Source: Vulcanimicrobiota bacterium (GTDB lineage Bacteria > Vulcanimicrobiota > Xenobia > Xenobiales > JADMJV01). From it: DNA of 64,000 nt. The stretch is taken from positions 2,406,210-2,470,209 of the forward strand of contig JBFWNU010000001.1 of assembly GCA_050250895.1 (NCBI GenBank). Reading direction: 5' to 3'. The notes beneath the pieces are model-generated. The model saw only the letters and a list, made by a program, of their open reading frames with translations. It did no database searches and was not told where the DNA came from. Numbering within the stretch: position 1 is the stretch's first letter; the number at the start of each line of letters is the position of its first letter. Positions 4,089 to 47,019 of this stretch are shown in pieces. Both the position numbers and the translations under genes were made by a program.

Positions 4089-4694
4089 ATGAGCACTTTG
4101 GCTACCGCGACCTTCGCCCTGGGATGATTCTGGGGTCCTGACTCCCAGTTCGGGAGTGTGGCGGGAGTGGTCTCGACCCGGGTCGGATACGCCGGCGGCA
4201 CCACCATCAACCCGCACTATTACAAGATCGGCGACCACGCCGAGTGTCTCGAGGTCGACTTCGACCCTGAGAGGATCAGCTTTGCGCGTTTGTTGCACCT
4301 GTTCTGGCAGTGGCACAATCCCTTTCGCGCCGCCTGGTCAAGACAGTACATGTCGGCCATTCTCTCTCATGATGCCGGTCAGCGCGAGGTGGCTCTCGAG
4401 TCGGCGGCAGCCCTCGAAGCGGCCCGGGGTCAAAAGGTCTGCACCGAAATCTTGCCCTATGAGGGCATGACTTTGGCCGAGGACTATCATCAGAAGTATT
4501 TCCTGCGCCGCAACCATCTGGTGACTCGGGAGTTCGAGCAGCAGTTTCCGCTGTTACGTGACTTCGTCGACAGTTCGGCGGTGACGCGGGCCAATGCCGT
4601 CTTTGGCGGACATCTCAAACTCGAACCGACCGAGGTCGACCACTTCGGGCTCTCGCCGCGAGCCGCTCAGGCCCTGCTTCGCGCACGTTGGTAG
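4089..4694 (+). CDS. msrA: peptide methionine sulfoxide reductase MsrA with in-frame TGA (4125-4127) at the catalytic Cys position; putative selenoprotein
   Basis: ATG at 4089 gives MSTLATATFALG-TGA-FWGPDSQFGSVAGVVSTRVGYAGGTTINPHYYKIGDHAECLEVDFDP... This matches the MsrA signature AxFAxG-C-FWGxE....GVxSTxVGYxGG, with TGA exactly where the catalytic Cys (GCFWG) sits. A hairpin (4141-4157) lies 13 nt downstream of the TGA. Confidence 0.7.
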
Positions 4695-24412: not shown

Positions 24413-27341
24413 CTTGGTTCGAGCGTCTTGGAGTCGATCCGCCGTGTTAGGTTTCTTGGCTGGCTGGTTTGCCATAGGCCTTGTCGCTTGCGAGAGTTCG
24501 AGGGTGCTCGACCAAGTGGAAACACCCGCACCAGGTCGAACACCTCGAACAGGGGCCGAGTCCTGGCCGAGTTGGCCCTCAGGACCGACGAGGGAGAGTT
24601 CAAAGTCGTGAAAGGCGCCGGCAAGGTTGCCCTGGAGAAGCAGCCGCGCGAGGAGAAAGTCGCGACCAGGGGCGTGTTGGACAACCCGGGCTATTCTTTC
24701 TTCGGGCACCGGCAATACGGCGACTTCGAGTTTTTTCGCCTCGACGAGGACAACCCGGTAGGCTATCTTCCTTACTCCAGCAGCGATGCGGTTTCGAGCC
24801 GGCTGCCAGGGATTTCCGGCGGCGGCTACCGATATCGCATGATGGGATTCGTTAGCCTGGGCGTGAGCGGCGATCCTCATGTACCCGGCCAATCTTCGGT
24901 CGAACTGGTCGTCTCGACACCCGACGGCATCGATGAGGTCGAGGTGCCGACCCTCGATGGCGACACGGTCACGGTGGCTCCGCCCATTACCCTGCGCCGG
25001 GTTCAAACCGTGACCAGCACCGGTGGAGTGGTGTCTCAGCGGGTCGAGACCTTCGTCAACGGAGTCTCGCTCGGGGTCGACTCGTCGAGTTATCTGGAAA
25101 TTGGGTTGAAAATTCCGTCGGTGTCCGGCGACTACCAGGTGAGCACTCACGGCCAGCGCTCGATCAACTATGACGAGCCGGTCAACGATAGCTACGATCT
25201 GGCCTGGACCATCCCGGTTCGCAAACTGCAGTTGGCCGAGAGCCTGGGGCCGGTCGAGGCGACCCCGGGACAGCCCATCATCATCAGCAATCGCATCACC
25301 TGGGACAGTCCGGGCGAGGTTGTGGATGCCAAATGGACTGTGACCCTCAGTGATGTCTTCGACGAGAACTATGAATTCTACGAGGGCACAGGAGAGATGT
25401 CTCGGCCACCTTTGACACCTCGAGTTTTCAGGCCAGAGGGACGACGCCGCGACGTTACCTGCTGATTCCCGCCGGTAGCTCGCTGGTGGACATGCTCAAG
25501 GCCAAGCAGGCCGAACTTCTTGCTCGGGGCGAAGACATCCGGGCCCAGACCGACCTGGTTCCTTTGGTCTACGAAATCTTCGCCAGCGCCGAAGCCTTCC
25601 CGCAGCAGGAAGTCTTCCCGAACTCTGGGGTGCAATTCTATCAGGCTCGCTACTTTCTGCTCAGCGAGTCGCAGGCCGAGCCGGCCATCCGCATTCGCGA
25701 TCTGAGCGTCGACCCCAATCCCTTCGAGCCCAGCCCGGTGGCCCCCGAGGACCGTCAGGTGGCGACGATCTCGGCCTATGTCGACGCGGTGGGCTTCGAC
25801 GGCGGCTATGTGGTGGTCGAGCCTCGCATTTACGACCAATCGGGAAACCTGGTGCGAAGGTTCGAAGACCAGTATCCCATCGACTACTTTGAGCTGGAGT
25901 GGGACGGTTATGACGATGAGGGCAATCGGGTCGAGCCTCAGGAGATCACGATTCAACTGAGTGCCCACGTCTGTGACTTCGCGGGCCTGGCTCGTGAGAT
26001 CGCGGCAAAGTTATCGCCTGAGATCTTAGCACAGGGTTGTTCCCTCCCGTCAGACGCCTTTCTGGTGGCTCAAGTTGGAACGCCACTAAATGGTGTGATT
26101 CAGGTACGTTCTGGAACTAACCTGGTTGCTCAAAGCTTTCATGGTACTCCGAGTTCGGCCGATCTGGCCAGGTTGAGAACAGTCTTTCCCGACGGGCGCA
26201 ACGGCGTCAACAACACGTTAGAGATATCCGCTTCCGGGTTCACCGGGAATCCGCCATCGAGCATTGAGATTGTTCTCGAAGGGTCTGCGAGCAGCACTTC
26301 ATCGGCCCCTATGATTCTAAATCAGGCCAACAACTATACCACAAGTTTTACGCTGACACCTGGCCTGATCAGAACCGGCCAGCTTGGCCCTAGCATCACG
26401 TTTTCGGACTCGGTGTTGAGCGTGACGGGCGGAGCGCAGCTGTTGTTCGAAGGGTCGCTCATGGGAAGCGGCGTTCCGTATCCGGGCCCAGACCCGACCT
26501 CTTTGGGAACCTACAAGGATGGGTCCTCGGCCTCAGAGGCAGAAAATACCGCGAGCAACGTTTCCAGCCTGGGGTATGAAACCGTAGAGATTAGAGGGAC
26601 GGCGGTTCATTTTCAAGCATTGCAAGGCTTAAGGTGAGACACCCGTCCGAGGTCTTTTACTTCGTGCAACATGGATCCGGAACCGGAGAGATCGATTTGG
26701 GGGGTAACCAATCCTTGAACCCGGGTCAGAATATTACCCGTTCGGATTGCACCTCTTTGAAAACTCTGATATTCACAGCCTGTCGGGGCTTGGTGCTCAA
26801 TGATTATAACAATCTATATGAAAACCATCGCCCATTCGCGGATATGGCGACCCGAAGGCAATTGGACTTCGGGGGTCCCAAATGGTACAACATCACAGGT
26901 GCATCCGACGCGTTTGCCCCGTTTTCCCCAACCGAACGGAGGACAGTGCTTCTGGGATTCAACCACGTTGCACCCGCTAAGCTGGCCGCGGATATTCTCG
27001 ATGTCTATCGACTTGCCTTGGGAGATTTGCGAGGAAAGATTAACCAGGGCGACCTAACTGTCAAGAATCTTGAACCGCTGGCCTGGATGAAGGCCAACCT
27101 AGCGGTTCTCCAGGGCGCGAGTGGCTCAGAACTGGCGAGAGGCTTGTGCCTGAACGCGTGCGCTTACGATACTGAGTATTACTATTATATACCGTTTGAT
27201 CGATTCGACCCGACCGAAGACCCGTTTCGTTCAACGCGCGAGGTTCATCGTGTTCCGCGTGGAGACTGGAACACAGATCTCACTCGAGTTGAGTGGATTA
27301 CGACGCCGAAGCGGGTCGGCAGGATGGTTACCATACCGTAG
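24413..27341 (+). pseudogene. cassette C gene 1: large lipoprotein homolog of 16604..19705, disrupted by at least three frameshifts
   Basis: Signal peptide/lipobox frame (VLGFLAGWFAIGLVAC) differs from the body frame (24428..25465). A 1-nt deletion near 25395 (gagatgtctcggccacc vs gaccgacatttcggccacc). A -1 shift at 26634/26637. The three ORFs together are ~55-70% identical to copy A. Confidence 0.6.
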
Positions 27342-45986: not shown

Positions 45987-46105
45987 AGATGACTCCCCTC
46001 TGCAGGGCTCAGGTTAGCCTCCTCAGGTGAACATCATTTGACCAAAAAGTGAACGGCTCGCCGTTAATGCGCGAGGGCGGCCCGAAGGCCGCCCTCGCGA
46101 CTAGA

Positions 46106-46363
46106 CTAGAAGCCGCTATCCAGGTCGAAATCGGGGATGAGAAAGTGCCGGCTTCTCCTCTTCCTCTCGACCTTTTTGGTCTCTTGAGCCTCTTTAGCTT
46201 CTTGCTGCTCAGGCCGTTGGAGTTGTTCTTGGGGAACCTCTACGTCCGCCGTTTCGACCGTTTGGCGGGGTGGTTCCTGGGGCGTCTGCTGTTGGGGTTC
46301 GGCCCAGGCGGGGGTCGAGGCCAGCACGGCCAGAGCGAGCAGGGAGATCAGTTGTTTTTTCAT
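46106..46363 (-). CDS. small secreted Gln/Glu-rich protein
   Basis: Signal peptide MKKQLISLLALAVLASTPAWA; 85 aa. Its promoter region carries one arm of the inverted-repeat pair that flanks tetR. Confidence 0.4.
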   Translation of the reverse strand: MKKQLISLLALAVLASTPAWAEPQQQTPQEPPRQTVETADVEVPQEQLQRPEQQEAKEAQETKKVERKRRSRHFLIPDFDLDSGF

Positions 46364-46381
46364 GATAGTATCCTTTCTTTC

Positions 46382-46400
46382 TAGACCAGTCTGTATAATT
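46382..46400. promoter_or_regulatory. 19-bp element tagaccagtctgtataatt (candidate TetR operator 1, contains TGTATAAT)
   Basis: Inverted-repeat partner of 46987-47005 (18/19 match). Lies between the tetR stop and the small secreted gene's start. Confidence 0.45.
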
Positions 46401-46414
46401 TCGAGGCAAAAAAA

Positions 46415-46981
46415 TTACTCGCCTTTCAATAGCAAGGGTAGAGTGGAGCGCAGGCGCTGCAGGGGCTGGGTGTCGCGGTGGGCACGGCTCAGCAACATGG
46501 CGCCCTCGAAGGCCGTGAACATCAGGTTGGCCAGATTGGCGGCCTCGTCTTCACTGTAGCCTGCCTTGACCAGGTTGCTCGACAAGATCTTCTGAGCCCC
46601 TTCGAAGGCGCGACTACAGGCCGTTTGGACCGCCTCGGAAGTGGCCGCCACCTCGAGGGCCACCGTGGCCACGGGGCAACCACACTGGAAGTCCGAGGCT
46701 TCGAGCTCTTGAGCGGCCACCTCGAGGATCTTGTCGAGGGCCTGGCGGGGGCTCGAGGTCAGGTCGAAGGCCGACTGCAACCGCTTGCCGATGCCTTGCG
46801 AGGCCAGGGTGATAGCCTCGGCGGCCAGTTGTTCTTTGCCACCGGGGAAGTGGTAGTAGAGCGATCCCTTGGGAGCGTTGCTCTCGGCAATGATCTGATT
46901 GAGACCGGTGCCGTTGAACCCCTGCCTGCGGAGCAGGCGGGTGGTGGTCTCGAGCATTCTATCGCGGCTGTCGGTGGCCAT
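46415..46981 (-). CDS. TetR/AcrR-family transcriptional regulator
   Basis: N-terminal HTH RMLETTTRLLRRQGFNGTGLNQIIAESNAPKGSLYYHFPGGKEQL matches the TetR_N signature. Confidence 0.8.
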   Translation of the reverse strand: MATDSRDRMLETTTRLLRRQGFNGTGLNQIIAESNAPKGSLYYHFPGGKEQLAAEAITLASQGIGKRLQSAFDLTSSPRQALDKILEVAAQELEASDFQCGCPVATVALEVAATSEAVQTACSRAFEGAQKILSSNLVKAGYSEDEAANLANLMFTAFEGAMLLSRAHRDTQPLQRLRSTLPLLLKGE

Positions 46982-46986
46982 GACTG

Positions 46987-47005
46987 AATTATATAGACTG
47001 GTCTA
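46987..47005. promoter_or_regulatory. 19-bp element aattatatagactggtcta (candidate TetR operator 2), overlapping a -10-like TATATAAT 8 nt from the tetR ATG
   Basis: Reverse complement tagaccagtctatataatt matches 46382-46400. The -10-like hexamer ends 8 nt before the start codon, which suggests a leaderless transcript. Confidence 0.45.
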
Positions 47006-47019
47006 TTTTTTGTCAACCG

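Follow-up and report, generated by a model that had tools for sequence, protein, structure and literature searches.

TetR/tetA and QacR/qacA follow a well-known regulatory scheme, in which a homodimeric helix-turn-helix repressor occupies an operator that lies over its own promoter and over the route to its target and is released by a ligand. In a 2007 J Bacteriol paper, Hirooka et al. reportedly described LmrA as a paralogue of Bacillus subtilis QdoR (YxaF) that recognises the same box. QdoR has two operators in the promoter PqdoI and one in the promoter PqdoR, and it is released by quercetin (PMC8481877). Here, a locus of this type is described in a 64-kb stretch of contig JBFWNU010000001.1 from a Vulcanimicrobiota bacterium (64,000 nucleotides, referred to as the window). 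It consists of a tetR gene of 188 codons (46415..46981, minus strand) that is bracketed by a 19-bp inverted repeat and followed on the same strand by a gene for an 85-aa protein with a signal-peptide-like N-terminus (46106..46363). Both open reading frames (ORFs) agree with a preliminary description of the locus, which had also proposed the repeat arms as operators, a leaderless tetR transcript and the small gene as co-regulated target. The locus is most probably an ordinary, well-conserved self-regulating switch of the known LmrA/QdoR kind, and the unusual part is its target only.

The tetR product is, on sequence grounds, a member of the LmrA/YxaF(QdoR) subfamily of the TetR family. Its 188 aa agree with the length of about 190 aa that is usual for TetR regulators, which combine an N-terminal helix-turn-helix domain with an all-helical C-terminal one. 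It contains the TetR_N domain (PF00440, E 1.8e-10, residues 10-55) and, at residues 78-177, the LmrA/YxaF-like C-terminal domain TetR_C_13_2 (PF21993, E 2.3e-31, 108.6 bits versus a cut-off of 27). Of 43 solved TetR-family chains that match the protein, B. subtilis YxaF (QdoR, 1SGM) is the best (E 2.8e-38, residues 4-186), and the next-best structure follows 26 orders of magnitude behind (E 3.4e-12). The identity to QdoR is 36% overall, 58% within the DNA-binding domain (residues 1-55) and 26% in the remainder. JGI annotates homologues as 'repressor of lmrAB and yxaGH operons'. Two further features of the subfamily, a box over the regulator's own promoter and a box adjoining a target gene, are also found at this locus.

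The inverted repeat that had been reported to flank tetR with one mismatch was recovered in full. Arm 1 is TAGACCAGTCTGTATAATT (46382-46400, plus strand) and arm 2 is TAGACCAGTCTATATAATT (46987-47005, minus strand); the two 19-bp arms are reverse complements that differ at a single base. No third copy with up to three mismatches is present in the window, and a chance origin is excluded by 100 dinucleotide-preserving shuffles, which yielded 0 matches. Judged by base identity with known sites, the pair is two copies of the asymmetric 18-bp LmrA/QdoR operator rather than a pair of generic palindromes. This operator has a core palindrome, TAGAC-nn-GTCTA, with an AT-rich arm at one side only, and its form in the family is A-W-T-A-T-A-t-a-G-A-C-Y-G-G-T-C-T-A. 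Because the box is asymmetric, with a palindromic core and a one-sided AT-rich arm, the TATAAT part is repeated as well. The window has a G+C content of 62.9%, so the two AT-rich boxes are conspicuous in it. Two further candidate boxes with three mismatches, at 26805 and 61747, were rejected, as they lie inside long ORFs and their count equals the chance expectation.

Promoter sequences of B. subtilis served as the comparison standard for the boxes; PqdoI includes ATTATATAGAACGGTCTA and AATATATAGACTGGTCTA, and PqdoR includes ATTATATAAGTCGCTCTA (supplement of PMC8481877). Box A (46988..47005, ATTATATAGACTGGTCTA on the plus strand) has the core TAGAC-CA-GTCTA, which is located within the spacer of the tetR promoter. 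It is identical in 16 of 16 consecutive bases to TATATAGACTGGTCTA, the second site of PqdoI, and shows 0 mismatches to the 18-nt consensus pattern used in the survey below. Box B (46382..46399, ATTATACAGACTGGTCTA on the minus strand) differs from box A by one mismatch and is located 14 nt past the stop codon of tetR and 5 nt ahead of the ribosome-binding site (RBS) of the small gene, which places it 19-36 nt ahead of the small-gene ATG. The box consensus of Hirooka et al. 2007 reportedly reads AWTATAtagaNYGgTCTA; a full-text search for the string gave no match. The proposal that the arms are operators is supported by their match to the PqdoI and PqdoR operators, by the QdoR/YxaF-like protein encoded between them and by the presence of the box next to homologous genes across phyla. 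The tetR product would be the protein that binds both boxes.

The distribution of the box was surveyed with a profile built from 19 homologues. At least 80 loci were listed from species-representative genomes (38-51% identity), belonging to Actinomycetota, Chloroflexota, Vulcanimicrobiota, Bacillota, Myxococcota and Acidobacteriota, and they were searched for the 18-nt pattern, allowing three mismatches at most; all counts refer to the 80 loci listed. Boxes are concentrated around the regulator genes: the 120 nt upstream contain 45 boxes, distributed over 43 loci (9.6 kb scanned), and the 150 nt past the stop codon contain 12 boxes in 10 loci (11.9 kb scanned), compared to none inside the regulator genes (46 kb scanned) and two in the other flanks (361 kb scanned). 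The pattern retrieves the qdoR and qdoI boxes of B. spizizenii at the expected places (L067, L076). At all ten loci with downstream boxes, these precede a target gene. The targets are NmrA-like NAD(P)-binding proteins (L035, L048, L056, L058), reductase-hydrolase fusions (L046, L059), a pump of the major facilitator superfamily (MFS; L049), the bicupin QdoI (L067, L076) and a small signal-peptide protein (L014). The inverted bracket of the window, in which the box upstream is reversed and the one downstream points forward, is also found in Bacillus (L048, L049) and in Chloroflexota (L056, L058). Regulator paralogues with 46-47% identity from Vulcanimicrobiota or related genomes (L009, L011, L012, L013) have no box within three mismatches, so the box is not universal in the subfamily. 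Among actinobacterial homologues, tandem or overlapping upstream boxes, e.g. ctagaccagtcgtcatagtcaaTAGACCGGTCTCCATATT, were observed in Acidimicrobiia (L062, L069, L073; at about 2440-2486), and an Embleya plasmid carries two adjacent palindromic cores (L039:2435-2477).

Box A is embedded in the promoter of tetR. On the minus strand, the region upstream of tetR reads TGA CGG TTGACA AAAAATAGACCAGTCTA TATAAT TCAGTC ATG. In the consensus scan, the -35 hexamer TTGACA (47011..47016), which is absent from the preliminary description, and the -10 hexamer TATAAT, separated by 17 nt, agree with the consensus at 12 of 12 positions. This is the one perfect TTGACA-N16-18-TATAAT in the window, where 0 are expected. 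The core of box A occupies the 17-nt spacer, and its AT-rich arm doubles as the -10 TATAAT (46993-46988). The distance from the end of the -10 to the tetR ATG, whose A is at 46981, is 6 nt (46987-46982) and not 8 nt as given previously. No Shine-Dalgarno sequence can be accommodated in these six bases, TCAGTC. There is good support for the start codon, as the alignment of the N-terminus to YxaF and to further homologues begins at residue 4. Transcription usually starts about 7 nt downstream of the -10. With the -10 ending 6 nt upstream, the first base of the tetR mRNA would therefore be the A of the ATG. The tetR mRNA is thus probably leaderless, with transcription starting at the ATG at 46981, and probably self-repressed.

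The same arrangement is found in many homologues, and the proposal of a leaderless and autoregulated tetR is strengthened by it: the box lies over a perfect sigma-70 promoter, the spacing between -10 and start codon is 6-11 nt in all close relatives, and 20 of 29 distant homologues have a spacing of 6-8 nt. The 29 are the loci whose upstream box is oriented as box A, and in the 20 an in-frame start codon lies 6-8 nt past the -10-like arm; an example is TAGACCGGTCTCTATAGT-aaaacc-ATG. Loci with this spacing are mainly from Actinomycetota, and the window shares that pattern. A further 7 of the 29 loci, from Chloroflexota and Bacillota, have a leader of 16-24 nt with a clear Shine-Dalgarno sequence. 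As judged from this spacing, the predicted leaderless layout is common in the LmrA/QdoR family.

The close relatives of the locus comprise the contigs L001-L006, in which the TetR proteins are 64-90% identical to that of the window, L087, a syntenic contig that was found via the small protein, and L088, a shorter copy. Two of these contigs are short; L005 covers the box A side only and L088 the box B side only. All contigs that cover both sites (L001-L004, L006, L087) show the full order of the module, namely -35, 17 nt with the box, -10, 6-11 nt, tetR, T-run, box in opposite orientation, RBS and small ORF. The -35, box A and -10 form an invariant block in the alignments, and box A is unchanged across six relatives; the -35 of the relatives reads TTGACA, TTGACG or TTGCCA. 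Box B is likewise an invariant block, and the sequence around it has diverged. The outer neighbours are an MFS gene and a hypothetical gene in the window; L001 has a divergent gene there, and L002-L006 have two-component systems. Since these neighbours vary, tetR and the small ORF represent the conserved unit.

A run of seven T (46408..46414, minus strand) directly follows the tetR stop codon. A run of six to eight T is kept in the clade of the window (L001-L006 and L087), 8-10 nt ahead of box B, and is degraded to TTGTCTT in the more distant L014. No stable or conserved hairpin was found ahead of it. It may act as an UP-like element, as a bending tract or as a weak termination signal.

The small gene is preceded by a Shine-Dalgarno-like AAAGGA (46371..46376, minus strand) 7 nt ahead of its ATG; GAAAGGA or AAAGGAG is found at a similar distance in the relatives from the same clade. 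The putative 85-aa product consists of a signal peptide, a Q/E/P-rich region and the C-terminus FLIPDFDLDSGF. No Pfam family matches it, and just two sequence relatives were found in a large protein database. MerP, its sole NCBIfam match (E 0.003), was rejected as the family, because the match is at the level of the signal peptide. Counterpart ORFs with a signal peptide and a length of 79-103 aa follow the regulator in L001-L004, L006, L014, L087 and L088 (e.g. L001:1933-2172, L002:4634-4933, L003:4628-4924, L006:4594-4905 and L014:3153-3428). In the close relatives, the products are 20-70% identical to that of the window; each has the signal peptide, a middle part of low complexity that is rich in Q/E/P, and a hydrophobic C-terminus. 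The C-terminus ends in GF in these relatives, and in GF or DF when the whole set is considered. The conserved order of tetR, box and small signal-peptide ORF, kept in relatives with differing flanking genes, agrees with the earlier view of this gene as the co-regulated target. It was also observed that the middle part of these proteins is disordered, that they have a basic patch, and that they are always located directly after an LmrA/QdoR-type regulator and a box.

Downstream of the small gene, tandem hairpins with a T-run form a probable terminator (46052..46099, minus strand) at the end of the tetR-small-gene unit. It includes a perfect 13-bp G+C-rich inverted repeat (46070-46099) with a TTCG loop, and the terminator scan indicated a second terminator-like site with a TTTTT tail (46065-46052). 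A comparable hairpin follows the small gene in L001. A known RNA family was considered for this region and rejected; the sole Rfam match, to the proteobacterial small RNA sX6 (46051-46197), is sub-threshold with 22 bits versus 40 and is probably caused by the terminator hairpins.

With good but not complete confidence, tetR and the small gene are regarded as one operon of the LmrA/QdoR type, with a self-repressed leaderless promoter and an internal operator. A repressor bound to box A would exclude RNA polymerase, and tetR would thereby limit its own synthesis. The small gene would be transcribed from the tetR promoter through to the tandem-hairpin terminator, and box B, once occupied by the repressor, would form a roadblock that stops the polymerase from reading into the small gene. 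In this way, a basal supply of repressor could be kept up while the target is not made. Release of the repressor from both boxes would be brought about by a small-molecule inducer.

The small gene is most likely read from the tetR promoter because neither a second promoter nor a terminator was seen between the genes. The consensus scan indicated no promoter of the small gene in the window, L001, L003, L006 and L014, and the tetR promoter is the sole promoter-like site on the sense strand of the module in the window, L001, L003 and L006. The promoter scan gave a second hit in the window (49355-49327), within the MFS gene upstream. Folding of five orthologous regions that link tetR to the small gene revealed no hairpin that was stable or conserved (z-scores of -0.7 to +1.6). 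Box B had previously been placed in the promoter region of the small gene; it does lie ahead of this gene, but no recognisable promoter is present there, and co-transcription with tetR fits better. An antisense promoter at box B was considered as well and discarded, as the sequence is TATAAT in the window, L001 and L087 and CATAAT or CATATT in L002-L006, with no conserved -35. In L003 alone, the minus strand carries an antisense site at box B, TCGGCA-17-CATAAT (4582-4610, 9 of 12 positions), that points toward the 3' end of tetR and is not conserved.

Several observations weigh against the preferred reading, and some of them are in favour of a weak promoter of the small gene that is overlapped by box B, so that the repressor would block initiation instead of elongation. 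In B. subtilis, qdoI lies just after qdoR and has its own promoter overlapped by boxes, an arrangement shared with B. spizizenii, which makes it possible that box B overlaps an internal promoter that is weak and departs from the consensus. In the distant homologue L059, a good hairpin with a T-run stands between the regulator and its downstream box, and an internal promoter would thus be required at that locus. In the window, the tetR stop codon is overlapped by a weak hairpin that resembles a terminator (6 pairs, G-T among them) and lies ahead of the T-run, so partial termination after tetR is possible, and the conserved T-run upstream of box B could itself serve as an UP-like element. Furthermore, transcription of the upstream MFS and hypothetical genes could enter tetR across a gap of only 38 bp. 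The internal promoter nevertheless appears as the clearly less likely arrangement, though one to be taken seriously: in the window, L001, L003 and L006, the interval from tetR to the small gene has no sense-strand site with at least 9 of 12 consensus positions, a manual search in several registers (-10 in the AT-rich arm, -10 at the box end, -35 in the box core in the manner of PqdoI) revealed no conserved -35/-10 pair, and the tetR transcript lacks a stable terminating hairpin. The roadblock and the internal promoter share the same logic, in which TetR represses and a ligand induces.

A 19-bp inverted pair around a single gene could also be the terminal inverted repeats that delimit a small mobile element or MITE-like cassette carrying tetR, and the module is indeed found in differing gene neighbourhoods among the relatives. 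Such an origin is highly improbable, because the arms equal a known operator, one of them lies inside a promoter and its distance from the start codon is fixed in all relatives, and the small gene always co-occurs although it would be outside the element. In addition, the segment contains no transposase, the outer flanks (cctttctttc and ttttttgtca) show no target-site duplication, and just two copies of the arm are present in 64 kb. No more credible is an invertible segment, in which the repeats would flip tetR relative to a fixed -35 and thus cause phase variation. The repeats do flank the gene, with the -35 outside and the -10 inside the repeat, but all assemblies of the clade that show both boxes have a single orientation, the feature that tells the boxes apart (T in A; C or GT in B) stays side-specific in the relatives, no recombinase gene is adjacent, and the operators already account for the repeat. 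Repressors on the two boxes, which are 605 bp apart from centre to centre, might finally touch and loop out tetR for stronger repression. Two high-quality sites in a fixed arrangement kept in the clade would suit such a loop, which is still considered very unlikely: most of the distant homologues listed have a single upstream box, and a second box, where present, is always located just before the target gene, where local repression suffices. To our knowledge, looping is without precedent in the TetR family.

For the operon with an internal operator, the inducer could at a guess be a planar aromatic compound such as a flavonoid, by analogy with LmrA and QdoR; this is a guess because the ligand domain is only 26% identical. 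Several residues differ within the family. A Cys-x-Cys motif, FQCGCP (residues 98-103), is present in the clade of the window and missing in QdoR. Its second Cys (C102) is near-invariant across the family and absent from B. subtilis QdoR, which has GIP. A Trp that is aligned in QdoR and the actinobacterial homologues (at about residue 133) is replaced by Ala in the clade of the window. Given the low identity of the ligand domain and the change from Trp to Ala, the inducer may differ from that of QdoR. The Cys and Trp differences, together with the frequent NmrA-like reductase targets, might point to a thiol-reactive or quinone-type signal instead of flavonoids.

Upstream of the module, two further genes are encoded on the minus strand. 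One encodes an MFS transporter of 506 aa (49467-47947) and the other a 306-aa protein (47940-47020) without a Pfam or NCBIfam family, whose stop codon lies 3 nt ahead of the tetR -35. The former had been described as a POT peptide transporter. An MFS gene is present upstream on the same strand, but the POT label is weakly backed, as the protein matches only MFS_1 in Pfam and the NCBIfam model for oligopeptide:H+ symporters matches partially, with 72 bits versus a cut-off of 130. Both genes are outside the conserved module and do not accompany it in the relatives, and the MFS gene, upstream of the tetR promoter, has no box.

For Vulcanimicrobiota/Eremiobacterota, a phylum in which experimental genetics hardly exists, these assignments provide a confident and testable set of operator, promoter and regulator. 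The finding does not overturn current understanding. It indicates that the LmrA/QdoR operator is near-unchanged across Bacillota, Actinomycetota, Chloroflexota and Vulcanimicrobiota and that its AT-rich arm forms the -10 of a predicted leaderless promoter in many lineages. The compact module of perfect promoter, operator and repressor might serve elsewhere as an inducible switch after its ligand has been identified, and it hints at a family of small secreted proteins, so far uncharacterised, as its output. The C-termini of these proteins that end in Phe (FLIPDFDLDSGF, LEVHGF, HFRDF) resemble those of outer-membrane proteins. As a speculation that we regard as unlikely, the leaderless two-gene operon would use its roadblock to uncouple the upkeep of the repressor from a secreted, disordered target that might act as an envelope-stress signal or a chaperone-like factor in Vulcanimicrobiota. 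If true, this would be a new type of output for the LmrA/QdoR family, in place of a detoxifying enzyme or a pump.

Among the described systems, the generic logic of a self-repressed TetR-family regulator is shared with TetR/tetA and QacR/qacA. Those are mostly divergent gene pairs with one shared intergenic region and symmetric operators, whereas the genes in the window are in tandem and the operator is asymmetric and present in two copies that bracket the regulator. The B. subtilis QdoR system is much closer in its parts: the regulator belongs to the same PF21993 subfamily, the operator has 18 bp, the promoter of the regulator is self-repressed (presumably so in the window), and a further box is located after the regulator gene, ahead of a target on the same strand. 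Differences concern the target, which is a bicupin quercetin dioxygenase in the QdoR system and an 85-aa secreted protein in the window, and the number of boxes on the target side, two compared to one. The operator of B. subtilis qdoR lies downstream of the -10, whereas box A is reversed, its AT-rich arm forms the -10 and the mRNA is probably leaderless; the QdoR-type boxes all point in one direction (L067, L076), and those of the window are opposed. The host phylum is Bacillota for QdoR and Vulcanimicrobiota (Eremiobacterota) for the window. Neither of the B. subtilis regulon targets, the MFS pump lmrB and qdoI, a quercetin 2,3-dioxygenase, is the target in the window. In its gene order, the locus resembles B. 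subtilis lmrAB, where the regulator is also the first gene of a two-gene operon and is followed by an MFS efflux pump; in the window, the downstream gene encodes the small secreted protein, and the MFS gene is upstream and without a box. The Bacillus homologue L049, with the order box, regulator, box and MFS gene, has the same inverted bracket as the window.

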